Part shown: positions 1-50,116 of the stretch, one piece after another
Position numbering within the stretch: position 1 is the first letter of the stretch
Layout: each line of letters begins with the position of its first letter
Virus record (IMG/VR): IMGVR_UViG_3300030376_004672
Span: 1 to 50,231 of that record
Strand: one strand, 5' to 3'
Length of the DNA stretch: 50,231 bases
Source of the DNA: a virus
Taxonomy: Duplodnaviria > Caudoviricetes
Position numbers and translations under genes: made by a program
The notes under the pieces: model-generated
The model's input: only the letters and a program-made list of their open reading frames with translations
What the model was told of the DNA's origin: nothing
Database searches by the model: none

Positions 1-1527
1 GCTACAACATCCGCTGGATTTAGTGTAACTGGAAAACAAACCATAAGCACTATTGACCAAATAGGTAGTGATACTGACAAATTCTTAATGTCAGATAGTG
101 GTGAAATAAAGTATGTAACGGGAGCTAATTTAAGAAGTTATATCGGAGCAGGTACAGGTAGTGGTGATGTAGTCGCATCAGGCACACCTGTAGATAACCA
201 AGTTGCTATTTGGACGGATGCAACTACAGTTGAAGGAAATGCTAATATGACATTTAGTGGAACTGTTTTAACAGTTACCGGAGCAACATCAACAGAATGG
301 AATACTGCATACACAGATAGATTTAAATGGAATGGAGGGTCAACAGGGTTACTTGCAGCTGATGGAAGAACATCTTTGGGTGCAACTACGGTAGGTGCAG
401 CTTATTTTACACTTAGTAATCCTAGTGCGGTTACTTTTCCAAGAATGAATGCTGACAACTCAGTTAGCTCATTAAGTGCTTCAGATTTTAGAACAGCGAT
501 TGGTGCAGGTACTTCTTCAACTGCAGGTACTGTAACCTCGGTTGCATTTACTGAACAAACAGGAAATAAAGCAGGTATTACATTAGGAGGAAGTTCAAGT
601 TGGACTACAAGCGGAACATTAAATATAGGACTTGATATTCAAGGTCAAACCGCATTAGGAGCAACAGCTGCCGGTGGAGATTACTTATTAATTTATGACA
701 CAAGTGGCTTAGCCAATAAAAAAGTAAGTGTAACTAATTTAGTTGCCGCTGCTCCACAAGGGGATGTTACAGCTTCTTCAACAACTACTTTTACAAATAA
801 AAGTGGTAATATATCACAATGGACAAATGATTCAGGATATACTACTAATTCAGGAACGGTAACAGGTACAGGTGTAAATCAGAGAATAGCGTATTGGACA
901 GGCACTTCATCACTTAGTAGTGATAATGGATTAACATATAACAGTACAGATAATAAATTAATCTTTAATGGCGATTATGCTATTAGAGAAGACGGGAGTG
1001 GTACGTTTGAATTAAATTGTGATGGCTCAGATATAATTACTAAAATAAATGGCTTTGGTTCAAATGGGTCTATGACGTTTGATGAAAATTCAATTTATAC
1101 TACAGCAAGTGGATTCTATGTTCCTTCGGGATATGGTATATCTGCAGGTACAACTTCAACTGCAAGTGGTACAATCAGAGCAACAGGTAACATTATAGCA
1201 TACTATTCGGATGAAAGACTAAAAGATTTTAAAGGTAATATTCCTGATGCTTTAGATAAAGTGTGTAAACTAAATGGTTATTATTATACACAAAATGAAA
1301 AAGCAGCTGAACTTGGATATGAAAATTATGAAAGACAAGTAGGAGTTAGTGCACAAGAAGTTCAAAGAGTTATGCCTGAAGTTATTGAAACTGCACCTAT
1401 CTCTTACGATAATGATGAAGATTATTTAACAGTAGATTATGGTAGATTAGTACCATTACTAATTGAATCTATCAAAGAATTAAAAAATGAAATAGAAATT
1501 TTAAAAAATAAATCATGTGGAAATTAA
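1..1527 (+). CDS. Tail fibre/spike with C-terminal intramolecular chaperone (peptidase S74-like); 5'-truncated
   Basis: Frame 1 is open from base 1, so the ATG at 88 is probably internal. G/S/T-rich shaft; C-terminal YYSDERLK...GVSAQEVQRVMPEV...VDYGRLVPLLIESIKEL autocleavage-chaperone signature. Confidence 0.85.
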   Translation, partial: ATTSAGFSVTGKQTISTIDQIGSDTDKFLMSDSGEIKYVTGANLRSYIGAGTGSGDVVASGTPVDNQVAIWTDATTVEGNANMTFSGTVLTVTGATSTEWNTAYTDRFKWNGGSTGLLAADGRTSLGATTVGAAYFTLSNPSAVTFPRMNADNSVSSLSASDFRTAIGAGTSSTAGTVTSVAFTEQTGNKAGITLGGSSSWTTSGTLNIGLDIQGQTALGATAAGGDYLLIYDTSGLANKKVSVTNLVAAAPQGDVTASSTTTFTNKSGNISQWTNDSGYTTNSGTVTGTGVNQRIAYWTGTSSLSSDNGLTYNSTDNKLIFNGDYAIREDGSGTFELNCDGSDIITKINGFGSNGSMTFDENSIYTTASGFYVPSGYGISAGTTSTASGTIRATGNIIAYYSDERLKDFKGNIPDALDKVCKLNGYYYTQNEKAAELGYENYERQVGVSAQEVQRVMPEVIETAPISYDNDEDYLTVDYGRLVPLLIESIKELKNEIEILKNKSCGN

Positions 1528-1778
1528 CAAAACAATATTGGAAAGATATGTGGAATGCTTTATGGAATAAAACCTCCATCGATGAAAAAAGTATAGCTGC
1601 TTTAAAAGAAATTAAAAAAAGATATAAACTAACTTCTAAAGAATTAGCCGATGTGGGTAATGCTTTAAAGCAAGTAGGAAATCAACTAGATGATATTCCA
1701 AGAGCGTTAGCAGGTAAAAAAAGAAAAGGCAGAAAGTTGAATATGCCTAAGCCGACTAATATGGGAGGAAAAAAATAA
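1515..1778 (+). CDS. Hypothetical basic protein, Trp-rich amphipathic N-terminus
   Basis: 87-aa ORF overlapping the upstream stop, A-rich start context. Confidence 0.6.
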   Translation: MWKLTKQYWKDMWNALWNKTSIDEKSIAALKEIKKRYKLTSKELADVGNALKQVGNQLDDIPRALAGKKRKGRKLNMPKPTNMGGKK

Positions 1779-1784
1779 TATATT

Positions 1785-2258
1785 ATGGCTATACCCTCGT
1801 CAGGAGCATTAGACTTTTTAAATATGGCTAGAGAATGTGCGTATGGTACATGGGGGTCAGGAAGTATAACCGGAGCTATATCTATTAGAGATTTAGTTGC
1901 AGGAGGAAATACATATGGGTCAGGTCAATCCTATCCTTCAATTAATACTTCGAGTTCATCTTATCCTCCTAACACTACACCTGTACAAACTAATTCCTTT
2001 TATGGATATGACAAAGATGCGTCATCTATTACGGCATTTAGTGGAAGTTTTGGTGGAGGTAGTGGTAAGGCAGTTTGTGGCTCTGCAACTAATGTAACTT
2101 ATTATCACGATGGTTCAGGAACATATCCTTCTGTTGGTGACAATTGTTATACTAATTCAGCAGGTACTTCACCAATGGCTGACAATTATTATAAAATGGC
2201 AAATGGTGGATTATTGTATGTTGAAGATGAACAAGCTAGTAGTATAGCAACTTGTTAG
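1785..2258 (+). CDS. Small tail-associated structural protein
   Basis: MAIPSSGAL N-terminus typical of small proteins following S74 tail fibres; G/S/T-rich; C-terminal Cys-bounded domain. Confidence 0.6.
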   Translation: MAIPSSGALDFLNMARECAYGTWGSGSITGAISIRDLVAGGNTYGSGQSYPSINTSSSSYPPNTTPVQTNSFYGYDKDASSITAFSGSFGGGSGKAVCGSATNVTYYHDGSGTYPSVGDNCYTNSAGTSPMADNYYKMANGGLLYVEDEQASSIATC

Positions 2259-2279
2259 AGAGTTTAGATAATATTTTAT

Positions 2280-2287
2280 TATCTTTG
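2280..2287 (+). promoter_or_regulatory. Bacteroidota-type -7 element TATCTTTG (late class, no -33)
   Basis: Matches TAnnTTTG, intergenic, 40 nt upstream of ATG 2328. Confidence 0.6.
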
Positions 2288-2327
2288 TAAAAATAAAAAT
2301 AATTATAAACACTTAAAATTTAATGAA

Positions 2328-2606
2328 ATGAGTAAAAAATTAACAGACACAGAATTAGAATCAATTCAAAAATCACAGAACGACTTTACAAAAGCTAAAT
2401 TAAGAATAGCTGATGTTGAGATGCAAAAGGCGGGAATTTTACAAGAACTAGATAAAATTAAATCCGAGTTTGCTGTTTTTGAACAAGAGTTGATTAAGAA
2501 GTACGGAAAGGATAGCAGTATTAATATGCAAACCGGAGAAGTAAGAACGGTGGAGGAAATAAAAGCTGAAGCTGAAAAAGAAAAAGAATCAGAAAAAAAA
2601 GAGTAA
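2328..2606 (+). CDS. Hypothetical coiled-coil protein (possible fibre-assembly chaperone)
   Basis: 92 aa, charged helical, abuts the start of the long fibre gene. Confidence 0.6.
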   Translation: MSKKLTDTELESIQKSQNDFTKAKLRIADVEMQKAGILQELDKIKSEFAVFEQELIKKYGKDSSINMQTGEVRTVEEIKAEAEKEKESEKKE

Positions 2607-5600
2607 ATGGCAAAAATTAGCGACACTACGAGTTATCCCAATATAACCCCGACAAATGAAGATTATTTAATATTAACAGATAAAGATTCTTCTTTAGCCA
2701 CTAAGACGGTTACAGTCGAAGCACTTCAGACGTTTATATTTGGGAATATAGCTTCGTCGCTAATACCAACAATTGATGACCAATTTGATATTGGTTCGTC
2801 AACTAAAGAATGGAAAGATTTATACATTGATGGAGTAGCTTATATAGATGATTTAAGAGCTGACGTTGGTGAAATAATTACGCTAACTGTTCCGACTAAT
2901 TTAATCGCTAGTGGCGTATTAACCTTATCGGGAACAGTTGGTGGTTCTTCTTTAATTACATCAACTTCTTTAGCAGGAGCTGCAAATACTAATTTAGCAA
3001 GTACACTTGCTATTAAGAGTTATGTAGATACAGCTATAGGAACTGTTGATGATTTATCATGTTCTTATGATACAAGTACAACAGCCGTAAATATACCGAC
3101 TCAATCTTTAAGAATATTAGGTACAGCAAACCAAGTAACCACAACAGGTGATGGAGCACAAACAATGCAAATTGCTTTTACAAGTAATATGATAACACCC
3201 GGTGATGTATCAGTAGGTGGAACTTCTTTAGTTCCTGTAACTGATAGCAATACAAAACTAGGTAGTTCTACATTAAAATGGACTGTGCTTGGAACAGATT
3301 CAATTATTGATGCATCAAATGCTCAAGGTACAGCTAATCAAGTTTTATCGGCAGGACCTGCAGGTAGTTCATTAGCTTGGATAGATATACCAAATGAAGA
3401 TTTATCAGTAAGAATAGGAAGTTCAGGAGGAGCTACTTTTGTGGTAGATTTAGCTACTGAGATGATTTCATTTGTTGGAACAACAAACGAGGTAGAAGTT
3501 TTGTCTCCTGTATCTGAAACTGTTGCATTTAGATTACCTGCAACTGTAACGTTTAGAGGAGCTATTGAAACGCAAGACATAAAAGCTCAAGGCGATATGC
3601 TTTACGATATTGGTACAAGTGCCGATAAATTTAGAGACTTATATGTTAGGTCTATTGCAGATGGAGCAGATAGTTTGGGTGGAGCTAATATGGTTTTAGC
3701 AAAAAATGCAGCTAATACAGCATTAGAGTGGACTACACCTGATGATTCTTCATTAGAATTTTTAGGAGATTCAAACACAGGAACACCTTCAGTAGATTTA
3801 AATTCTCAATCTTTTTCTGTTCTTGGAACAACAAGTCAAATAGTAACTGCAGGTAACAACCAAACATTAACTTTATCATTGCCTTCAGTATTAATTGCTC
3901 CGGGTTCAGTAAAAGCTACTACAAATTTAATTGCTACAGGCGATGTGCTTCCTGTTTCGGATAGCACAAGTAATTTAGCTTCAGCTACAGAAAAGTTTTT
4001 AGCATTATATGCTGACTTAATTTATGATGCAGCTGATTCAGCAGGTACATCAGGTCAAGTATTATCATCTACAGGTTCAGGATTAGCATGGGTGGCAAAC
4101 ACAGGTACAGACGATTTACAAATTGCAGGTGATACAGGAACAGGAGTTGTTGACCTTCCAACACAAACATTAACTGTTGCCGGAACATCAAATGAAATTG
4201 TAACAGTTGGAGGTTCACAAACAATTACTGTTGCCTTTCCAACGGACATAACTACTAAAAACGATATTAATATAACAGGAGATGTTTTACCTGTTACTGA
4301 CAGCAATAGTAAATTAGGTAGTTCTTCATTAAAATGGGTATCTCTAGCTACTGATGATATTTTAGATGGTACGAATAGTACAGGTACAGAGTATCAAGTA
4401 TTAAGAAAAAATTTAGGTAATACTGCTTTAGAGTGGTATGTACCAACTGTATATTTTATAGGTGATTCCGGTACAAATTCATCTGTTAGTATTGGTGAAA
4501 GTTCTTCATCAGCTCCAATGAGATTTTTGGGAACTGCTAATGAAATAACAACAGTATCTGATGCTACAAGAACAATCACATATAGTATCCCATCAACATT
4601 TGTAGCTCCGGGCAGTATCGAATCAACAACCACTATTACCGTAGGTACTGATTTACTTCCTAAGAGTGACCTTACTACTAAAATAGGAAGTGGTAGTGAA
4701 AGAATGTTAAGAATGTATTTAAGTGAATTGTATGACCATGCAGGTTCAGGAGGAACAAATGGTCAAGTTCTATCTTCAAATGCTTCCGGGCAATTAGCAT
4801 GGGCTGCACAAAATAACAGTACATTAAATATATCTGATGGTACAACTGCAGGTAGTGTTGCTTTACCAACACAATCCTTAACTATTGCAGGTACTGCAAA
4901 TGAAATTACCTCAACAGTATCAGGTCAGTCAGCTACATTGTCACTACCTTCAAACGTAGTAGTACCGGATACAATGGAAATTACTACTTCATTATCCCCT
5001 AAAACAACTGCGGCAGTACCACTTGGTACAACATTATTAAGATGGTCAGAAATATGGGTAAACGATATTCAAGCAGTTAATGGCGGATTAGGAACTGCAG
5101 GACAGTATTTAGTTAAAAATGGTGCTAACCAATTATCATGGTCTTCAATAACTGCTAATTCTTTAGAGTTTTTAGGAGACTCAAACACAGGTACACCGGC
5201 GGTGGATTTAGCTACACAATCTTTAACTATTGCGGGTACAGCTAATGAAATAGAAACTGCAGGTAATGCACAAGCATTAACTATAGCTTTCCCAACGGAT
5301 ATAACTACAAAAGGTGAACTTAATAGTGTTGGTATTGTAAAACCAACTACTGACGTAGCTATTGACTTAGGTACATCCGCATTAAGATGGAAAGATATAT
5401 ATGTAAAAGAAATTAGAGATGCAGGTGACAACGTAGGTACATCAGGACAAATTTTGGCAAAAAACCCTGCGAACACCGGATTAATATGGGTTAATAGTGG
5501 AACAGCAAATGTTGTAGAAACAACAACTACTATATCAAATGCACAAATGATGGCTTTAGCTACAACACCAATAGAATTAGTTCCTGCTCCGGGTGCAGGT

Positions 5601-39785: not shown

Positions 39786-42202
39786 ATATCTAATTTACTA
39801 TTATATTCCAACTCATGTTTGCTTCTAAACCTAATCCACTTTCCTGATGCATCTCTTCCTTCTTCCGGCGGCACACCTTGTTTAAATACTCCATATGCTG
39901 TAAGCCATTTATAAAATCTTGTTCTTGATATAGTCATTTTAGCTTTCGGTCCATAGTCAGGATTCTCTTCGATAAAATTAAAATATAAATCTTGTTTACG
40001 CAAATGCATATTTGGTTTTAATAAATCATTTGGTTCGTGACCTGTTACTAATCCACACCATTCAATAAAGTCATGGGATGTTTCTGCTGACAGCTGTCTC
40101 ACTTTTAAATTTACAAATACTGATTGAATTAATCCCTTTTCTAAATATAGTTGTAAACAAGATATCATGTAGTTATCAAACTCACACCACATATCTTCAT
40201 CCCAATCTCCAAACATAAGTTTACCAAATTCATCAAAAGGTGTAAAGGTTTTATTATAATATTGATGTAACTCTAACTCCCATTTTCTTCTTGCAAAAGA
40301 ATTACCTGCACCCTTAATAGCATAATTAGTTGTTATAGCTATTTTAGGAGACTTGCTAAAAGGAATTTTGATTGCATCTTTGTTTTTCTTTTCAAGTGTT
40401 AAACCCTCCGTAATAAGACTAAATAATCTCTCAAAATCGAAATACTTTTTTACATCATCAAAACATAATATCTGTGTATCAGCAGAAACTAGCTGATATG
40501 CAAACGACCTTTCAAATGCAAAACTTTTACCATCAATGGTAACTAATTTTTTCATATGAGATAAAGCATTCATAAACAAGCCCTTACCTGTACCACCTTC
40601 AGGGTTGTCGCTTATAACCTCATCATTCAAGATTACAGCCGGACAAAAAGAAAGGTTTTTATATCCATGCATCATAAACCCTATTGTTGACTCCATTGAC
40701 TTTATTCTGCTTTCGTTTTTTGCACAAATATTTGTTATGAAAGTTTTATAATCACAATTATCCATTCCACATTTTTTAAAGTCTCTATCAATTACATGGT
40801 CTTTCCAAACAAAACCTCCCAAGTCTATATAATCAATAGTAGTTACATTATCCTTTGTGATTTTAACAGCACAATTTTTATAATATAAGTAGGATGTATT
40901 TTTATTATCAGCAATAAAATATATATTGACTGATGAAAGTAAAGTTAAAAATTCGTCTTTAAAAAACCTTGTATTGTCAGCAAAGTAGTTGTAAATAGAA
41001 AGGTCGTCAAGCTCTATCAATCCACTTAATATAAAATCTTTTATTTCTTTTTCAGTAGTATGGTCAATGAGATTGTTTTGAACTCTTACAAACACATAAT
41101 TCTTACTACCTTCAGGACAAAATTTATAGAACCCATTGTCTTCCAAGTATTCTTTAAATAAAACATGAACTATCTTTATAGTACCCTTATCGTTTTTTAC
41201 CCAAAAAGTTTGGTTATTGTTAGACTCTTCTGCTTTATTTAAGACTGAATCTATTATCGCTTTATCAAGTTTTGACTCCTCTAATTGAGTTCTAACTTCT
41301 TTTTTTGAAACCCCTCTCCTTAACTTTCCTTTTACTTGATTTACTTTTTCTTCATCCTCATAAAATTTAGTACCAAAGTTTTGGGATTGAGAATATGCTG
41401 AATCTATTGTTCTTTCTATTTCTCTTGTTGTAAAATCTTTAGTGCTAAACTGCCCAAGCACATAGGATGCGAGACTCTTGTTGACTCCAAAATCATTTAG
41501 AGCTGATGCAAGAACATAAGCATTCTGATTTCTTTGTCCTTCCGTCATTGGATATTTTTTACTCCACCATTTAAGTAAAATATCTACAATTTTATTCTCA
41601 TCAGTAATAGGAATTGTTAATGGGTCTTTATTTATATTAACTTCTGTATATTCTTCTTCCTCTATCTTGTCCCAAATTTTAGAGTTTTTATTTATATGAA
41701 TGATAGGGTCATAAGACTCATAACAAACTCTTGATAAGTTCTTTGAGGTTACATCAAAGTAGGAGGAGTTAAAATGTTTTTCTAAAGAATTAAAATACTT
41801 TGTATGATTCTCTGCGTCTGCCGGTATCTTTACCAATACTTTTAATCCGTTTCCGGAAGGTGATACAAAGACAGCATACACAAACTTGTTAGAGCTTAAC
41901 GTCTCCTTGTCAAGCATTAATGATTTAAAATCAGGATATCCATCAAAGTCTAGACATATAATTCCACTATGTAAGATGAGTGAGTTGTCAGCTCTTTTAT
42001 TAAATGTACCTGAAAAACAGATAGCCGGTAATTGTTTTTTTAATTCATTCCGGTCTGCCTTTTTCTTTTCCTTTCTTATCTTTTGAACCAACTCCTTTGA
42101 ATCTGAACCTTCTTTGATTCTTTCTAGTATTGTATCTATACCTACATGGTATGGAGTGATGGTTTCTTTAATATTTTTGAATATAGTTACTTGTTGTGTC
42201 AT
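39782..42202 (-). CDS. Primase(-polymerase)-helicase: VirE-N/AEP domain, PriCT, P-loop helicase
   Basis: K.QLPAICFSG.F, ICLDFD, SPSGNGLK, SRVCYESYDP; GQRN PriCT motif; EGGTGKG and CFDD. Confidence 0.85.
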   Translation of the reverse strand: MTQQVTIFKNIKETITPYHVGIDTILERIKEGSDSKELVQKIRKEKKKADRNELKKQLPAICFSGTFNKRADNSLILHSGIICLDFDGYPDFKSLMLDKETLSSNKFVYAVFVSPSGNGLKVLVKIPADAENHTKYFNSLEKHFNSSYFDVTSKNLSRVCYESYDPIIHINKNSKIWDKIEEEEYTEVNINKDPLTIPITDENKIVDILLKWWSKKYPMTEGQRNQNAYVLASALNDFGVNKSLASYVLGQFSTKDFTTREIERTIDSAYSQSQNFGTKFYEDEEKVNQVKGKLRRGVSKKEVRTQLEESKLDKAIIDSVLNKAEESNNNQTFWVKNDKGTIKIVHVLFKEYLEDNGFYKFCPEGSKNYVFVRVQNNLIDHTTEKEIKDFILSGLIELDDLSIYNYFADNTRFFKDEFLTLLSSVNIYFIADNKNTSYLYYKNCAVKITKDNVTTIDYIDLGGFVWKDHVIDRDFKKCGMDNCDYKTFITNICAKNESRIKSMESTIGFMMHGYKNLSFCPAVILNDEVISDNPEGGTGKGLFMNALSHMKKLVTIDGKSFAFERSFAYQLVSADTQILCFDDVKKYFDFERLFSLITEGLTLEKKNKDAIKIPFSKSPKIAITTNYAIKGAGNSFARRKWELELHQYYNKTFTPFDEFGKLMFGDWDEDMWCEFDNYMISCLQLYLEKGLIQSVFVNLKVRQLSAETSHDFIEWCGLVTGHEPNDLLKPNMHLRKQDLYFNFIEENPDYGPKAKMTISRTRFYKWLTAYGVFKQGVPPEEGRDASGKWIRFRSKHELEYNSKLDI

Positions 42203-42367
42203 TTTAATGTTGATTTTATGTTGATTTTTTATTTATAACTCGTTGATTATCAGTATCTGTGTTGAAAATGTTATATATATTATTACTTAAGGATAAAAAA
42301 AAGAAAAAAAATATATATAAAAACTATATAGCTCTATATAGAGCTCGAAAATTAACATTTCGACACA
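42203..42367. other. Candidate replication origin / regulatory region
   Basis: ATGTTGATTTT direct repeats, IHF-consensus site 42236-42248, imperfect IR 42258-42273/42353-42367 around an AT-rich core, 16-bp palindrome 42330-42345. Confidence 0.45.
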
Positions 42368-42402
42368 AAAAAAAGCAGAAAAAAGGAGGAAAAATCCTCC
42401 TT
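42367..42402 (-). terminator. Rho-independent terminator after SSB
   Basis: AAGGAGGA-N4-TCCTCCTT hairpin with minus-strand U tracts. Confidence 0.7.
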
Positions 42403-42423
42403 AAATCTACAAGAATAGCATAG

Positions 42424-42690
42424 TTAGAATGGTAAATCAGTATCAACAGCTTTTGGCTGAGGTGCTGATTTTTCTTCTTCGGCTTTCACATATGGTGTCT
42501 CTACTTTAATACTAATATACTTTTCACCTGATTGAGTAGTTGATACCCAACCGGCTAAAGAATACTGAACTCCGTTAGGGTCAGCACATCCACCTTTGTA
42601 ATCAGGATGTGTTTCCTTTTCTTTGTATTGATTTTTAAATAGACTCCCACTCGATGCTTTGTGTACATACTTCTTTTCTTGGTCTGCCAT
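42424..42690 (-). CDS. Single-stranded DNA-binding protein (putative)
   Basis: G.LFKN......HPDYKG......LAGW core and acidic C-terminal DTDLPF tail. Confidence 0.75.
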   Translation of the reverse strand: MADQEKKYVHKASSGSLFKNQYKEKETHPDYKGGCADPNGVQYSLAGWVSTTQSGEKYISIKVETPYVKAEEEKSAPQPKAVDTDLPF

Positions 42691-42859: not shown

Positions 42860-43580
42860 AATAATTATTTATTTCCTCTGCCGAAACATTATCATTGGCA
42901 AAGAATTGATTATATACTTCTACTGCCTGTTTGACTTTCTCTTCACCTTTAGCTAATGCTAACTCACTTGTTTTAAAAACACCACATATCCCAAATCTTT
43001 CAGGACTCTTGTCTATTGCTATAAAGATAACAGGTTTTCCAAACAAATGTTGATAGATAAATGCTTGGCTATCATAATTATAATAATAACTATTGATATG
43101 AAATTTAGAAATATCACTTGTGCTTTTTAAATCAATTACATATTCGTCAGAAATAATATCAGCTTTACCTTTCCATTCTACACCAAACAATTCTTTTATT
43201 TGAGGTTGTTCATATATATTATTAGGATTTTTAATCATGCTAAAAAGCTCAATGTTTTCAAACAATATATCCACTAGCATCTCACACTCATCAGCTTCCT
43301 TTTGTAATAATCGTATATTACCATCATTACACGCTTCCTTATAAACTTTCGTGTTACGGCTAGACGCTTCTACTATCTCAAAGTTTTTTGCCTTCTCCGG
43401 CTCTAAAATTAATTGATGAAAGTATCTGCCATATAAAAAATTTTTATTGTCAGGTTGCTCTTGCCTAAATAATTTAGGGTGTGTGAGGAGCTGATTAATA
43501 TTTGAGTTAGATAAATAGTTACGACCAATCCCATTATAATATTCGTGGTCGTCTTTTAACTTTTCTATTATATCCATCAT
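42840..43580 (-). CDS. RecE/ExoVIII-like PD-(D/E)XK exonuclease
   Basis: LSNS, G..FH..ILEP, KGKAD, IDLKST, Y..QA..Y motifs. Confidence 0.8.
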   Translation of the reverse strand: MMDIIEKLKDDHEYYNGIGRNYLSNSNINQLLTHPKLFRQEQPDNKNFLYGRYFHQLILEPEKAKNFEIVEASSRNTKVYKEACNDGNIRLLQKEADECEMLVDILFENIELFSMIKNPNNIYEQPQIKELFGVEWKGKADIISDEYVIDLKSTSDISKFHINSYYYNYDSQAFIYQHLFGKPVIFIAIDKSPERFGICGVFKTSELALAKGEEKVKQAVEVYNQFFANDNVSAEEINNYYVKKSI

Positions 43581-44131
43581 ACTAGTTCTTTAAAGTTTTT
43601 TGCAATAGCAGTAGCATACTCATCGTCAATATGATACATTTTTCTTAACTCTGTACCACACCACTTTAACCCTTTAGATTTATTTTTAGCTATAAACTCT
43701 AATGCAACAGCATAATTATCTCCAACATTTATAGAGGGTAGTTTGGTTATTTGATTAAAATGAACAGCTTCTTTTTTTGGAGAGCTATTCAATTTCGCAT
43801 TTGCTACCTCATCATAGGACGCTACTGAACTATCAAGACCTATGCCTAAATTAGCTAAAGCACGACCCCATGCACTTGTTTCGCAGTTCTCTACATAGGA
43901 GGTTTTATTAATAAAGCTACTTCCTTTTACTTCTTCGGCTAAACCGGTAGCGATTACCTTCCCTTCACTATTAGTAATAACAGCTTTTATAAGAATAGAA
44001 CTATTAGTCTTTTCCACCACTTCTGATAGTAAAGAATACTCTTTGTAGTTGGCTCTGAAATACTTTAGTCTTTCATGAACCTCAACGTAAGGTTTCCCTT
44101 TAACGTCAATAGTTTTTAATTTTTTAGTCAT
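43577..44131 (-). CDS. Putative single-strand annealing protein (Rad52/Sak-like)
   Basis: KGK.YVEV.ER...F and ENCETSAWGRAL..LGIG; adjacent to exonuclease and SSB. Confidence 0.6.
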   Translation of the reverse strand: MTKKLKTIDVKGKPYVEVHERLKYFRANYKEYSLLSEVVEKTNSSILIKAVITNSEGKVIATGLAEEVKGSSFINKTSYVENCETSAWGRALANLGIGLDSSVASYDEVANAKLNSSPKKEAVHFNQITKLPSINVGDNYAVALEFIAKNKSKGLKWCGTELRKMYHIDDEYATAIAKNFKELV

Positions 44132-45886: not shown

Positions 45887-46037
45887 TTTTATTTAATTTT
45901 TTATGGTCAACAAAACGCTTTCTGTGATTCACCTTTCCACTATATTTAAAGTAATGGTTTAGGTCAATCACATTGCGTTGTTGCACCTTGTTTGTCTCCT
46001 GTTGTAAACGGAGAAATTTAATTATATGTTTGGTCAT
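45840..46037 (-). CDS. Hypothetical basic protein
   Basis: 65 aa; ATGA-coupled to the upstream small ORF. Confidence 0.5.
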   Translation of the reverse strand: MTKHIIKFLRLQQETNKVQQRNVIDLNHYFKYSGKVNHRKRFVDHKKLNKNGDKKRPKDISTISK

Positions 46038-46860: not shown

Positions 46861-46887
46861 TTATATTTAATTTTAAATTAATAATAA

Positions 46888-46998
46888 TAGGCAGAGAGTA
46901 GGGCTACGTTAAACAACTGCGTGGGTTAGCTCTCTTTTAAAAGTTCCACTCCTTTACTTACCTAATTTTATTTGTAACCCTGTGTTACAGGTGTTACA
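46888..46998 (-). ncRNA. Candidate structured intergenic RNA
   Basis: Post-stop hairpin 46973-46998 plus a multi-stem element 46888-46964 that is GC-richer than its flanks. Confidence 0.35.
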
Positions 46999-47355
46999 TT
47001 AATCAATCAGTTCTATATCAGAGATATCAATCTCATCTTCCTCGCTATCCTCATCTACTAGCCAAGCCGGAAGAGTATCTCTCTCTTCAAAGATATTGTC
47101 TAATGTGTAGCTGATTTCATTGTGGTCAATGAGTTCTTGAACAAATACATTCCCCCAATACTTAAGGTCATCATAATCGGAGAACATCCACTCTGCAAAC
47201 CTTTTGCGAGTAATTGTGTATCTCTTTTTTGAATGTGATTTTGTTACATGCTCTTCTACTTTCTTTAAGTAGTCGTTCCAAGTATAAGGGATGTCTCCCA
47301 ATAATTCTCTGTGTCTCTTTTTTTGCTCTAGACCGAGCCACCTTTTTTCTCTCAT
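46999..47355 (-). CDS. Hypothetical protein with acidic C-terminus
   Basis: 118 aa, ATGA-coupled. Confidence 0.65.
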   Translation of the reverse strand: MREKRWLGLEQKKRHRELLGDIPYTWNDYLKKVEEHVTKSHSKKRYTITRKRFAEWMFSDYDDLKYWGNVFVQELIDHNEISYTLDNIFEERDTLPAWLVDEDSEEDEIDISDIELID

Positions 47356-47609
47356 AATTTTCTTGATTTTAGTTTATAATTATCTTCAGCTACGTCTTTA
47401 AGAACTCCCCATATATGTTCTATTGTACAGGGATGTTCCATTACCTCAACAAGTAACTCCATAGCTGTATCTGAATCCGTATCATACAATTCTTGTACGT
47501 CAAATACATTCCATAAGTTAGCTGTTTGGTAGCCGTTTCTTTCAAGGATTACTTTAGCATCGTGTATCCTCTCGTAGCTAGATTCATACTTTTTAAAAGT
47601 GTGTTCCAT
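47352..47609 (-). CDS. Hypothetical protein
   Basis: 85 aa, AAACT-ATG start. Confidence 0.65.
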   Translation of the reverse strand: MEHTFKKYESSYERIHDAKVILERNGYQTANLWNVFDVQELYDTDSDTAMELLVEVMEHPCTIEHIWGVLKDVAEDNYKLKSRKL

Positions 47610-47619
47610 AGTTTTTGAT

Positions 47620-48171
47620 TTAGTTATTAATTACTCTTACTCTTTTCGCATTCCCCTCGCCTTGTTCAATAGAAAAGATATCGCCATATACTTCTAACGT
47701 CTTATCCAAGACATCAAAAGCTCGATATACTTTTATTATTGTCGACTTCTCTTCAATCCATTCTTTTTCTTCACCATTACGCACCCTAATCGTTTGGAGG
47801 TGTGCAGTTATGACTCCGGCATCTTCAACATCCTCACCACTAAATCTTATCTTACCTTTAAGATAAATTCCTTTAGGTTGGAGAAAGTCAGAGACTATAA
47901 ACTTAAGCCAATTAACATATTGATAAAACTTTTGACCTCCGTTCCAAGCTAAACAATGAATGTCGGTTATGCCGTGTTCAACATCGTCAATGATTTCCCA
48001 TTTATTATATATTGATGGAGCTTTCTCTAGACCTCCTCGATAGTCGCCGGAGTATTCACCTGTGGTGTCGTGCCTGTCGTTTAGCCAAACTTGATTATAC
48101 TCATCAAGTTCGTCTTGTGTTAACCTTCTTGATAATGCCATCAGTCCGGTAAAATTGGTTGTGTAACCCAT
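47620..48171 (-). CDS. Hypothetical phage protein (MGY.T.F.G type)
   Basis: 183 aa; WNGG.KFY.YV.WL..I...L...G..L.G.I...GED..D.G pattern. Confidence 0.7.
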   Translation of the reverse strand: MGYTTNFTGLMALSRRLTQDELDEYNQVWLNDRHDTTGEYSGDYRGGLEKAPSIYNKWEIIDDVEHGITDIHCLAWNGGQKFYQYVNWLKFIVSDFLQPKGIYLKGKIRFSGEDVEDAGVITAHLQTIRVRNGEEKEWIEEKSTIIKVYRAFDVLDKTLEVYGDIFSIEQGEGNAKRVRVINN

Positions 48172-48232
48172 AATGTTTAATATTTAATTACAATTTAATT
48201 TAGTGAACACTTTGAAATCTTGTTCAGGATTT

Positions 48233-48354
48233 TAGAACGCAGACGAGGAATCGAACCTCTATATTAATAACCTAACGTCTTGTGTCAAATGGATAAGGGA
48301 GTTATGAGTCTCCTTATCTAAAACCACTTCCGAGCACCATGCTATCATCTGCGT
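48233..48354 (-). ncRNA. tRNA-like RNA A (non-canonical, ~120 nt)
   Basis: 7-bp acceptor ACGCAGA/TCTGCGT, T-arm GAGG-TTCGATT-CCTC, U8, D-like GG, central stem with CTCATAA in the loop, ends T-CTA. Confidence 0.65.
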
Positions 48355-48374
48355 TGCCACTTACAATTACGTTG

Positions 48375-48406
48375 CAATAATACGAATTAATAAATTAATA
48401 AACAAA
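48375..48406 (-). promoter_or_regulatory. Early promoter
   Basis: TTTG-N20-TATTATTG (one mismatch to TAnnTTTG). Confidence 0.7.
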
Positions 48407-48424
48407 TTTTAGACGAACTTTTTT

Positions 48425-49138
48425 TTATTGCTCCGGTTTATAATCCGGATTTGGAGCGTTGTCAGTCGTCAAAACTTGTAGCATAATGGCATCCACAAAT
48501 TGCTGTAAGATGTGTCCATACTTCTCATCAAAGCTATGGTCTTCTCTCCAATTATTTAGCCACCTTTTAAATTCTCGTAGCATAATTGTATTGGTCATAA
48601 ATCTATCCATCCAATTAAGCATATCTTGATAGTAACGAGTTACTATATACTCCTCGTGAATGGTGCAGTTGCCACCACAATAGGAGCAGTCTTCAGCTAT
48701 CTCCTCCATCTCGCCATCGTCATCTTCCTCTTCGTAATACTCCCAACCACTACCACCACACTCACAACAATCCTGAAATACTTCCTCGATGACATTGCAA
48801 TTGCCATTATTATAATAGTCGTAGTAGAATCTACTAGCAATACGAATCAGCTCTCCATTAATGGTTTCAGCTTCAGCAGATTGTGGTACTAGTTTTTTAT
48901 AAAGCTCATCATACTCTTTTTGATAAGCACCCTCATTGTTCCAATAGGTTTTTCCTAAAGGTGTTGATTTGCCGTGATGTTCAGCTGTCTTTTCCATCCA
49001 TTTGCACCAATCGGCTAAAGTTTGTCGAGCATCAATTTTGCTCATACCGAATCTTTTGATTAGGTAGGGTGTCGCACCGAACATATTCGTCTCGCCGGAC
49101 ATCTGCAATTCGCAGAGATAATTAAAATGTGTGTTCAT
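48425..49138 (-). CDS. Multi-domain early protein with DnaJ-like Zn finger and acidic loop
   Basis: SGETNMFGA N-domain; LVPQS..AET..GELIR...R.YYD.YNNG domain; CECGGSG...CSYCGG. Confidence 0.75.
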   Translation of the reverse strand: MNTHFNYLCELQMSGETNMFGATPYLIKRFGMSKIDARQTLADWCKWMEKTAEHHGKSTPLGKTYWNNEGAYQKEYDELYKKLVPQSAEAETINGELIRIASRFYYDYYNNGNCNVIEEVFQDCCECGGSGWEYYEEEDDDGEMEEIAEDCSYCGGNCTIHEEYIVTRYYQDMLNWMDRFMTNTIMLREFKRWLNNWREDHSFDEKYGHILQQFVDAIMLQVLTTDNAPNPDYKPEQ

Positions 49139-49163
49139 AATGTTTACATTTTTATTTAATAAA

Positions 49164-49214
49164 TCCGTTTCATCCTTTCGGAATCATCAGGTGTGATACA
49201 CATCACACTACGGA
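49164..49214 (-). ncRNA. Type III hammerhead ribozyme
   Basis: Minus strand TCCGTA|GTGTGAT-GTGT-ATCACAC-CTGATGA-TTCC-GAAA-GGAT-GAAAC-GGA. Complete CUGAUGA/GAAA core, stems I-III, GUA cleavage triplet (cut between 49209 and 49208). Confidence 0.9.
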
Positions 49215-49234
49215 GGGAATGAACCCCCCTTGTA

Positions 49235-49483
49235 TTAACTCACTCTCTCATATTCGTCTAGCCAATCATTAATGTCGTCTTCGTCTAACCAATAGTTAGT
49301 AAATTCGTTACCTTCTAAAATCAATTCTTTGGCTATGTCCATCATCCCATATTTATCATAGAATAATTCTGAATCAGGGTCTTCAATTTCTGTCTGACCT
49401 ATTTCGTGTAGCCACCCTACTTCGTAACCATCATTGGTTGGTAGGTAGTCAAACACATAGTGTTTTAGTTTTTTATTTGCCAT
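49235..49483 (-). CDS. Hypothetical highly acidic early protein
   Basis: 82 aa, ATAACT-ATG start, D/E-rich. Confidence 0.7.
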   Translation of the reverse strand: MANKKLKHYVFDYLPTNDGYEVGWLHEIGQTEIEDPDSELFYDKYGMMDIAKELILEGNEFTNYWLDEDDINDWLDEYERVS

Positions 49484-49500
49484 AGTTATATATATTTAAA

Positions 49501-49767
49501 TTATTTAACAAAACTCTTTTTCTCCCAAACAAATGAACTGCTCCACTCGTCTTCATCTTCTTGCTTTATCTCTTCAATCTCTTGCTCAATAAATGATTCA
49601 ATCCTATTGAATAGTTCAAGCGTTTGCTCTTCGTTGAGTAGCTCATTATGTTTTATATAGTTAGCTAACCTGTCGTAGTAGCTAAGCTCTTCACCTTCAG
49701 AGTTCCCCAAAAAATTGAAGGGGAAATCTCTGTAAGTGGTGTCGTTTATCCATCCTTTTCCTTTCAT
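49501..49767 (-). CDS. Hypothetical acidic early protein
   Basis: 88 aa, E-rich. Confidence 0.7.
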   Translation of the reverse strand: MKGKGWINDTTYRDFPFNFLGNSEGEELSYYDRLANYIKHNELLNEEQTLELFNRIESFIEQEIEEIKQEDEDEWSSSFVWEKKSFVK

Positions 49768-49776
49768 AGATATATA

Positions 49777-49908
49777 TTAAAATTGAATTGTTGAACCTCC
49801 TGTTGCAATAATGTGAATCACTACTGCTGACCAAGAGACAAGAACAAAGGTTAATACTGCGAATGTTATTACATTCTCTACTGAAATTGATTTGATTTTA
49901 TTTATCAT
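49777..49908 (-). CDS. 43-aa membrane microprotein MINKIKSISVENVITFAVLTFVLVSWSAVVIHIIATGGSTIQF (not in ORF track)
   Basis: ATAACT-ATG start, one hydrophobic helix; first ORF after the rightmost promoter. Confidence 0.65.
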   Translation of the reverse strand: MINKIKSISVENVITFAVLTFVLVSWSAVVIHIIATGGSTIQF

Positions 49909-49928
49909 AGTTATTAGTGGTTTAAAAT

Positions 49929-50017
49929 TAGTAACTAGAAGAGGAATCGAACCTCTTTACTCGTCAGTAGTTATTGGGATAATCAGCTTACGCCTTCTCC
50001 AATATCCAAACCTAGTT
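49929..50017 (-). ncRNA. tRNA-like RNA B (non-canonical, ~86 nt)
   Basis: Acceptor AACTAGG/TCTAGTT, perfect T-arm AGAGG-TTCGATT-CCTCT, stemless D-like TTTGGA, central stem TATTGG/CCAATA, variable hairpin TACT-GACG-AGTA, ends A-CTA. Confidence 0.7.
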
Positions 50018-50084
50018 AACATCTGTTGAAACCTTTTGTATTCGTGAATCCTATTCAACCTTGTTTCGTGTTCCAAAGATTCGA

Positions 50085-50116
50085 CAATAATACGACAAGA
50101 TTTCGACATATACAAG
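50085..50116 (-). promoter_or_regulatory. Early promoter
   Basis: CTTG-N20-TATTATTG; shares TCGTATTATTG with the 48375 promoter. Confidence 0.65.

Follow-up and report, generated by a model that had tools for sequence, protein, structure and literature searches.

Hammerhead ribozymes and tRNA-like RNAs in the early region of a marine flavobacterial phage: candidate modular cassettes for transcript processing

The window analysed here, a stretch of 50,231 nt (IMG/VR record IMGVR_UViG_3300030376_004672), comes from a marine Flavobacteria-type phage whose early genes lie on the minus strand. Between positions 46861 and 50116, four gaps or leaders of 96-253 nt hold one candidate structure each, and all remaining gaps are shorter than 20 nt. 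Read along the minus strand, promoter P1 is followed by tRNA-like RNA B, ORFs of 43, 88 and 82 aa, a hairpin with a hammerhead ribozyme and an ORF of 237 aa; the second half comprises promoter P2, tRNA-like RNA A, ORFs of 183, 85 and 118 aa and a fourth element (Table 1). A preliminary description of this DNA had given place and order of the promoters, of B, of the hairpin with the hammerhead and of A, and all of these were located in the window accordingly. It had also stated that every large gap carries a structured RNA, which is correct as far as candidate structures in four gaps are concerned, but no relative of the fourth was found. No family was found for the 237-aa ORF, for which the Protein Atlas gave no useful lead. 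Searches for relatives returned one weak match with the 237-aa protein and none with the 183-aa protein; related loci were obtained through a 184-aa protein encoded at 43577-44131.

Table 1. Features of the early region, in minus-strand order
Feature	Position	Strand	Remarks
Promoter P1	50085..50115	-	Bacteroidetes primary-sigma type, TTG-N20-TATTATTG
tRNA-like RNA B, 86 nt	49932..50017	-	MFE fold, homologues
ORF 43 aa	49777..49908	-	in relatives, different tRNA-like class ahead, at same promoter
ORF 88 aa	49501..49767	-	in locus L014, true tRNA-Met and tRNA-like RNA after
ORF 82 aa	49235..49483	-	in 5 relatives, element A directly after
Hairpin before hammerhead	49212..49229	-	overlaps 5' strand of stem III
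Type III hammerhead ribozyme, U10.1-U11.1 variant	49164..49214	-	Rfam, identity, covariation
ORF 237 aa	48425..49138	-	two CxxC motifs
Promoter P2	48375..48405	-	same type as P1, TTG-N20-TATTATTG
tRNA-like RNA A, 119 nt	48236..48354	-	12-sequence alignment, pair counts
Compact H-type pseudoknot	48205..48232	-	directly behind A; conserved
ORF 183 aa	47620..48171	-	PHROG 38666
ORF 85 aa	47352..47609	-	
ORF 118 aa	46999..47355	-	
Fourth element	46889..46998	.	bulged hairpin 46998-46973, second fold 46963-46889

P1 and P2 were assigned by the Bacteroidetes primary-sigma promoter consensus. CGTATTATTG occurs in the window at these two promoters only, and promoters near-identical to P1 are present in the related loci L014, L017, L019 and L037. 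Compared with shuffled sequences, folding energies gave z-scores of +0.40 for A, -1.23 for B, -1.90 for the hammerhead, -2.32 for the whole fourth gap and -0.36 for its right part. Since folding energy alone does not separate A and B from shuffles, the support for RNA structure in A, B and the hammerhead is comparative.

Rfam model RF00008 matches the hammerhead with 28.7 bits (E 0.0036), below the gathering threshold of 48.5, and the element is 83% identical over 47 nt to copies of the Pseudomonas phage Clew-1 type. Judged by its sequence, it is the known PaP3-like variant. The core (CUGANGA and GAAA) is invariant in 22 aligned copies, the NUH cleavage triplet being GUA. Positions 10.1 and 11.1 form U-U, not the usual purine-pyrimidine pair, a tolerated natural variant according to the accessible text of PMC3088659, which places PaP3 among the active variants. 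In copies selected by a pairing pattern, the three stems of the family are 94.6% paired, with two-sided change in 11 of 16 pairs. Hairpin and hammerhead together span 49229-49164, and the cut is predicted between 49209 and 49208, the next start codon following 70 nt further on. In relatives the upstream hairpin is conserved in place and free in sequence, and a population allele has a longer hairpin, yet retains it. It is predicted to cap the upstream fragment at its 3' end and to compete with stem III. A third T-arm was ruled out for this hairpin, as loop and stem are free in sequence in relatives and in the allele. The related loci L029 and L027 share one upstream hairpin sequence after homologous genes; a hammerhead follows it in L029 and a tRNA-like RNA in L027. 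For the window, the simplest reading is not a swap: a block made up of hairpin, hammerhead, gene and promoter would have been inserted between the 82-aa gene and A.

A consists of a 7-bp acceptor, a T-arm, a D-like hairpin with a GG loop and a long central arm, and is followed by CTAA. Its T-stem has four pairs and a conserved purine-purine mismatch at the base; the central arm, which has internal loops and, in most copies, a tip, varies freely in length. Across 12 aligned sequences 96.8% of the cells are paired and 15 of 21 pairs show two-sided change (0 of 500 shuffles). Covariation is strong, being seen in all 8 acceptor-end pairs, and a compensatory allele exists among near-identical phages in the population. 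An acceptor that is free in sequence but stays paired fits a nuclease which reads shape rather than a synthetase. The tip is absent in 3 of the 12 copies, and several copies carry a Met-type anticodon loop there. No Rfam family matched A. A model of A, run against 61 sources, found no members beyond its building set and gave weaker matches to B and other tRNA-shaped RNAs; neither A nor B had a full-length match in cultured phage records. The pseudoknot directly behind A had been overlooked in the preliminary description. In relatives it stands directly before hammerheads; in 7 of 8 aligned copies it adjoins a predicted cut.

B has a 7-bp acceptor, a 5-bp T-stem with T-loop and a 4-bp variable arm, again followed by CTAA; its central arm is of variable length, with no D-stem and no anticodon loop. 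Six homologues were found in other phage contigs. Covariation is weaker than in A (3 of 20 pairs, in the variable arm), and the invariance of acceptor and T-arm results partly from the search pattern, which fixed them. The 3' part of B recurs in many marine-metagenome contigs with unrelated flanks. Its 3' end had no match in 185,579 prokaryote genomes, and on this and the covariation an attP remnant is rejected.

Both RNAs share the 7-bp acceptor, the 5-bp T-stem (in A the four pairs plus mismatch) and the T-loop, and both have the layout of RNase P and RNase Z substrates, namely a 12-bp acceptor-T helix, a T-loop, a 5' leader and a 3' trailer. RNase P is described as cutting acceptor-plus-T-arm model substrates, C4 RNA and mRNAs (PMC11143913, as far as accessible). 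Neither A nor B is a canonical tRNA: a D-arm and a 5-bp anticodon arm with 7-nt loop in canonical spacing were not found, ARAGORN called 0 tRNAs, and the Rfam tRNA model matched neither. tmRNA was rejected, there being no G3-U70 in either acceptor and ARAGORN and Rfam being negative, as was a C4-type antisense RNA, for which unpaired, target-complementary, covarying segments were not found and Rfam gave no match at E up to 10. RNase III sites of the T7 type are irregular duplexes of about 20 bp or more. Such a long duplex is absent from three of the gaps; the fourth holds a hairpin that is long but imperfect.

No relative of this fourth element was found in related loci, pattern scans or phage BLAST. 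Scanning for its pattern returned 5 matches in exact and 7 in gapped form, all in unrelated coding DNA, and Rfam gave no match over 46861-47000 at E up to 10. The layouts of HDV-like, twister, pistol and hatchet ribozymes do not fit by eye. One related contig diverges into other sequence at position 46888. As a conserved RNA, the fourth element is unproven.

The survey covered 80 related loci; 541,517 nt upstream of an anchor gene were set against the opposite strand and 623,716 nt of downstream sequence. On the early coding strand 49 hammerheads and 28 elements with acceptor and T-arm were counted, while the corresponding numbers elsewhere were 0 and 2. These counts include near-duplicate contigs and, among the 28, about 4 true tRNA-Met; five shuffles produced one match. 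Of the 47 loci whose upstream part is 6 kb or longer, 16 had neither element and 18 had hammerheads only. Behind the ArdC-family gene a minimal tRNA-like RNA was seen six times and a hammerhead three times, behind a 346-aa family a hammerhead six times and a tRNA-like RNA three times, and ahead of the 43-aa gene one tRNA-like class four times in relatives, where the window has B. Some tRNA-like classes are reduced to acceptor, short linker and T-arm. CTAA follows 43 of 58 unfiltered matches, a number inflated by loci fetched with CTA patterns. Gene families with at least two upstream elements show mixed classes in only 2 of 15 cases and a mixture of hammerhead and tRNA-like RNA in only one. 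Elements thus mostly stay with the downstream gene, so that the alternation may largely be one of moving gene-plus-leader modules. Among cultured phages, Elemovirus elemoA_7-9A has a type III hammerhead ahead of its first early gene, and Cellulophaga phage phi38:1 carries tRNA-Glu genes standing alone as well as two tRNA-shaped elements that lie, unannotated, between coding genes.

Related phages place hammerheads and tRNA-shaped RNAs at like junctions, and both are therefore likely to cut the early message. We consider it rather probable that the gaps hold conserved RNA cassettes on the early coding strand, a hammerhead and two tRNA-shaped RNAs accompanied by a hairpin or pseudoknot, and that these divide the long transcripts of the host polymerase into mRNAs for single gene blocks whose ends are protected; the pattern most likely represents modular cut-and-protect cassettes, acting by self-cleavage or through host RNase P and RNase Z. 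Sequence, strand, conservation, covariation and alternation across relatives are observed; every cleavage, the enzymes and the benefit of processing are inferred. The hammerhead would cut itself after 49209, leaving an upstream piece that ends in a hairpin and a downstream piece with a 5'-OH, followed by two stem-loops. A and B keep the features read by RNase P (the 12-bp acceptor plus T-stem, the T-loop and a GG able to dock on it) and nothing that the ribosome needs, so RNase P would cut on their 5' side. A second cut of the RNase Z type past the discriminator would free A and B and leave a short AT-rich leader, behind A presumably capped by the pseudoknot. The early genes would thereby gain separate half-lives and translation rates. 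The proposal of processing elements in the preliminary description agrees with the comparison, in which such elements are conserved and not decayed, confined to the early coding strand and alternating after homologous genes, but instead of the single integrated control system envisaged there we find rather a kit of separately moving cassettes.

Several findings count against this reading as processing cassettes. Stem III is predicted, in a calculation without tertiary contacts, to be pulled apart by upstream sequence in 23 of 31 type III hammerheads including that of the window. The central arm of A keeps conserved sequence motifs beyond the needs of RNase P, and B homologues have a near-invariant acceptor and lie within long non-coding clusters, alongside tRNA-Met and further RNAs. 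A, B and all 5 class C copies stand directly behind a promoter, where the local transcript contains no preceding gene that could be cut off. Alternatively, the tRNA-like RNAs may themselves be the product, excised as stable trans-acting small RNAs that act as decoys or inhibitors of host tRNA-binding proteins or tRNA-targeting defences, with cutting of the mRNA as a by-product. The fixed acceptor of the B family and its RNA-only clusters, which also hold tmRNA-like mini RNAs, the spread of the B 3' part among unrelated flanks, the motifs and Met-type loops of A and the position behind strong early promoters fit this idea. We nevertheless regard it as unlikely, because the acceptor of A is free in sequence, its tip is missing in 3 of the 12 copies, the minimal classes have almost no surface left and hammerheads occur alone in many relatives (18 of 47).

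Still less probable are uncut cis leaders that stabilise the mRNA or, as in put-like antitermination, modify the elongating polymerase, the hammerhead alone cutting. The tRNA elbow is a stable fold, and A and B begin about 20 and 68 nt behind their promoters. Against this stand the promoter-proximal position of A in only 1 of 12 A-class copies, the retention of the complete 7+5 helix of RNase P type, of the T-loop and of a tRNA-gene-like C after the discriminator, and the alternation with ribozymes.

The preliminary description had combined processing with later silencing, in which RNA from P2 would pair with the start of the 237-aa gene. We find this combination very improbable, the match being weak to chance-level. 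By gapped alignment the trailer behind A does place this start third of 29 gene starts and within the top 4% (10 of 273 windows score as well), but by duplex energy the pairing is equalled in 274 of 381 control windows, BLAST of the P2 transcript on the antisense strand found no match to the gene start, and antisense from any other promoter gave nothing above chance. The matching bases lie in the AT-rich leader or are bound in the pseudoknot and in the acceptor stem of A, which changes in sequence in relatives and in the population allele. The matching heptamer is one strand of the pseudoknot, a conserved structure that accounts for most of the claimed match, and A-bearing relatives have neither the trailer nor the 237-aa gene. 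Hardly credible, finally, are neutral tRNA relics or attachment-site remnants on mosaic early modules: the Met-type loop in some A copies, the patchy distribution and the lack of significant folding z-scores would fit, but two-sided covariation, the compensatory allele, the strict strand bias and the unmatched 3' end of B speak against them and largely refute this reading for A and the hammerhead.

In the T7 early region, RNase III sites are structured intergenic signals that split the host-polymerase early transcript; here, by contrast, there is no long duplex, cutting would fall to a ribozyme and RNase P/Z, and several internal promoters are present. Mitochondrial tRNA punctuation and mascRNA/MEN-beta use tRNA-shaped RNase P/Z cut marks in a long transcript, whereas the present case is a phage with several unrelated non-decoding classes and ribozymes mixed in. 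The stable RNAs C and D of T4 are, like C4 RNA, non-coding phage RNAs with tRNA-like ends; unlike these, the tRNA-like RNAs described here matched nothing in Rfam up to an E of 10 and have no supported antisense target. The C4 antisense RNA of P1/P7 is cited as an RNase P substrate (accessible part of PMC11143913). For tandem prophage hammerheads, Perreault et al. (2011, PMC3088659) reported activity both in vitro and in vivo and suggested a part in the processing of phage transcripts, so ribozyme punctuation was already proposed in 2011. Intergenic hammerheads of phages and prophages, in particular those of the PaP3/LUZ24 type (PMC3088659, RF00008), share the type III core with U10.1-U11.1, the intergenic position in the early region, the clustering around single genes including antirestriction genes and the proposed role. 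They differ in that the accessible text mentions neither a conserved upstream hairpin or pseudoknot overlapping or adjoining stem III nor alternation with tRNA-shaped RNAs. Theta ribozymes likewise join ribozymes and tRNA processing in Bacteroidota phages, but as described in the accessible part of Kienbeck et al. 2024 (PMC10879173) they are HDV-like and lie directly 3' of true tRNAs, whereas our hammerhead occupies a separate gap and no decoding tRNA is involved. We found no tRNA mimics in the same punctuation job in print. Rfam has no model for the three RNA families A, B and the pseudoknot. They may already be included in PMC10690425, a virus-wide catalogue of candidate RNAs; none of six sample ids appeared in six of its supplement files.

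What self-cleaving ribozymes do in bacteria and phages has been called largely elusive (PMC6765202). If tRNA mimics and hammerheads share slots, the job would be end formation and nothing ribozyme-specific, and slots with neither element would be the place to seek new cutters; the fourth element could be a further cutter of a new kind. We propose tentatively, as something short of an even case, that early transcripts in a large group of podoviruses of aquatic Flavobacteria are punctuated by an interchangeable RNA kit. Its cutter would be either a hammerhead or a tRNA mimic that recruits host RNase P/Z, with at least five uncatalogued mimics among the choices, and would be combined with an end-protecting hairpin or pseudoknot. 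The cultured relatives elemoA_7-9A and phi38:1 make this hypothesis testable. If true, such a kit would amount to tRNA punctuation in a phage and would give phage hammerheads a defined job.

On comparative sequence grounds, the cassettes of the early region are real, conserved RNAs. By terminase and portal, the window, an entire virus contig of 50,231 nt, groups with Elemovirus, Cellulophaga phages of the phi38:1/phi19:3 type and an uncultured spring podovirus; wherever the 87 records state a host, it belongs to the Flavobacteriia. Seven sequencing runs, all marine metagenomes, contain at least half of the early-region words. The relatives are about 58-60 kb long with an early region extending about 4 kb further upstream, so the window is incomplete at this end. 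A scan of 37 window proteins turned up no RNA polymerase. The order of genes and gaps is that of the preliminary description. Both promoters read TTG-N20-TATTATTG, which we take to be the Bacteroidetes primary-sigma form, and their common 10-mer is absent from the rest of the window. ARAGORN and Rfam at gathering level matched none of the early-region RNAs, and at E-value level in Rfam the hammerhead alone stands out. Folding z-scores of the elements are unremarkable, and the case therefore depends on comparison with relatives.

The tRNA-like element A was aligned in 12 copies, of which L010, L093 and L095 are close to one another. Paired cells amount to 96.8%, and two-sided changes occur in all eight acceptor-end pairs, three of four D-like pairs and two of three central pairs; no shuffle scored as high, and slid controls fell to 36-52% paired. 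Contigs from three other runs carry one changed acceptor base; in two of them a one-base loss shifts the partner strand and restores the pair, and the leader is 12 nt shorter. Several copies have a Met-type anticodon loop as the tip of the central arm, and three lack the tip altogether. No Rfam family matches A.

The other tRNA-like element, B, has six homologues in other phage contigs, retrieved by a pattern in which the T-arm and the acceptor 3' strand were fixed; the alignment comprises five of them plus the window's copy. Two of the four variable-arm pairs covary, and the central arm differs widely in length. The 3' part of B is present in many metagenome contigs with unrelated flanks and had no match among 185,579 prokaryote genomes. 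Several homologues sit in RNA-only clusters beside tRNA-Met and tmRNA-like mini RNAs. The short tmRNA-like RNAs of L108, L112 and L110 gave Rfam tmRNA scores of 41.9 and 37.7 bits, below gathering, and the two shorter ones have no room for a tag frame.

The hammerhead has a complete core, a GUA site and U-U replacing pair 10.1-11.1. Copies sharing 83% identity with it over 47 nt occur in 51 Pseudomonas phage records; the one in Clew-1 immediately precedes an early gene. Perreault et al. 2011 (PMC3088659) include the PaP3 hammerhead in their list of active core variants and describe U-U as the mismatch that is tolerated best. They also propose a role for clustered phage hammerheads, namely cleavage of long transcripts into mRNAs of operon or gene length. 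All three stems covary among 22 aligned copies, picked by a pairing pattern. Nearly all relatives have a hairpin or pseudoknot whose end falls at stem III or within it. For 25 of 32 type III copies, the 45 nt preceding the cut have a folding energy of -11 kcal/mol or below (background 5th percentile -10.1), and stem III probability is <0.3 in 23 of 31 type III copies with 50 nt of upstream sequence, versus 4 of 31 without. Such a structure would cap the upstream fragment, and may also block re-ligation or delay cutting.

The pseudoknot pattern matched 11 times on both strands of 1.34 Mb, versus four times in three one-strand shuffles. Eight matches with one common motif were aligned and three excluded; six lie directly ahead of type III hammerheads and one ahead of a start region; the window's copy immediately follows A. 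Stem 1 varies freely in sequence with pairing maintained, which the pattern itself selects for; the independent evidence is position rather than pairing.

Across 80 loci retrieved via a protein, duplicates included, the upstream coding strand holds 49 hammerheads and 28 acceptor-plus-T-arm elements (about four being true tRNA-Met), against none and two elsewhere. Upstream sequence reaches 6 kb or more in 47 loci, of which 18 hold only hammerheads, four only tRNA-shaped elements, nine both and 16 neither. With duplicates dropped (42 loci), 96 elements mostly end 13-35 nt ahead of a start codon, separated from it by an AT-rich leader, a spacing that is not diagnostic because translation starts require it too. 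Classes alternate after the ArdC family (six minimal tRNA-like, three hammerheads) and a 346-aa family (six hammerheads, three tRNA-like), and one identical hairpin sequence precedes either kind, but when the elements are grouped by the gene downstream of them, mixed classes occur in just 2 of 15 families. The hammerhead of the window appears to belong to an inserted block. The main rival to transcript processing, that the tRNA mimics act in trans, we regard as rather unlikely.

It had also been suggested, without coordinates, that a later promoter silences an early gene by antisense; our tests covered the identifiable candidates. By duplex energy, the second-promoter transcript pairs with the start of the 237-aa gene no better than 274 of 381 windows do, 308 of 999 genome windows pair equally well with that start, and the more favourable gapped alignment (10 of 273 windows as good; third of 29 starts) passes through AT-rich leader and the pseudoknot strand. 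Such silencing is not supported and is highly improbable.

A bulged hairpin and, behind it, a second fold make up the fourth element, whose predicted layout fits the hairpin-plus-cutter arrangement. A related contig diverges from the window exactly at 46888, but the searches returned no relative. On the plus strand the right part of the element, which there ends in a T run, has a slightly better fold, and a strict Bacteroidetes-type promoter-like site lies about 900 nt before its hairpin. The element may be a terminator of an antisense transcript of the genes further downstream.

Coordinates of early-region elements and of further features observed in the window and related loci
Sequence	Feature	Position	Remark
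Window	A	48354-48236 (-)	
Window	B	50017-49932 (-)	
Window	Hammerhead	49214-49164 (-)	predicted cut 49209/49208; hairpin 49229-49212
Window	Pseudoknot	48232-48205 (-)	
Window	237-aa ORF	49138-48425 (-)	
Window	Second promoter	48405-48375 (-)	
Window	Fourth element	46889-46998	
Window	Promoter-like site; hairpin	46002-46032 (+); 46890-46941 (+)	possible antisense unit across four small early genes
Window	Third promoter, same type	39509-39479 (-)	ahead of helicase block; no structured RNA seen behind
Window	AT-rich gap, palindromic TATATAGAGC repeat	42200-42424	ahead of primase gene; candidate replication origin
L089	tRNA, long anticodon-arm insertion	2538-2677	just upstream of an A copy
L108	tmRNA-like RNA	2726-2811	G3-U70 acceptor
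L112	tmRNA-like RNA	282-383 (-)	G3-U70 acceptor
L110	tmRNA-like RNA	1661-1794	G3-U70 acceptor
L110	Non-coding cluster, ~1.1 kb	1290-2380	B, tmRNA-like RNA, tRNA-Met; further unexplained conserved segments common to L111-L113
L114 (Elemovirus elemoA_7-9A, cultured)	Type III hammerhead, unannotated	19138 (-)	ahead of first early gene
L011	Six type I hammerheads within 3.3 kb	182-3440	one with long stem III insert
L123 (phi38:1)	Two unannotated tRNA-shaped elements, two identical lone tRNA-Glu	20817, 15751, 28676, 30646, all (-)	between coding genes
L123 (phi38:1)	Main tRNA cluster		several further unannotated tRNAs
L055	Rfam DUF805b RNA, above gathering score	5111-5143	early intergenic gap

In the available text of the sources, ribozyme punctuation of transcripts is an old proposal (PMC3088659; PMC6765202), RNase P substrates include acceptor-plus-T-arm RNAs, C4 RNA and mRNAs (PMC11143913), and five tRNA-like viral candidates appear without hammerhead or early-gene context (PMC10690425); Theta ribozymes differ in that they trim true tRNAs (PMC10879173), and the accessible part of PMC5737381 holds nothing relevant. 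We found no paper pairing tRNA mimics with hammerheads in alternation in phage early regions; subscription papers or supplements could contain one. Systems for comparison are T7 RNase III sites, mitochondrial punctuation, mascRNA and the T4 RNAs C and D. The most likely reading is that the RNA cassettes process the early transcript, a predicted role that we consider probable.
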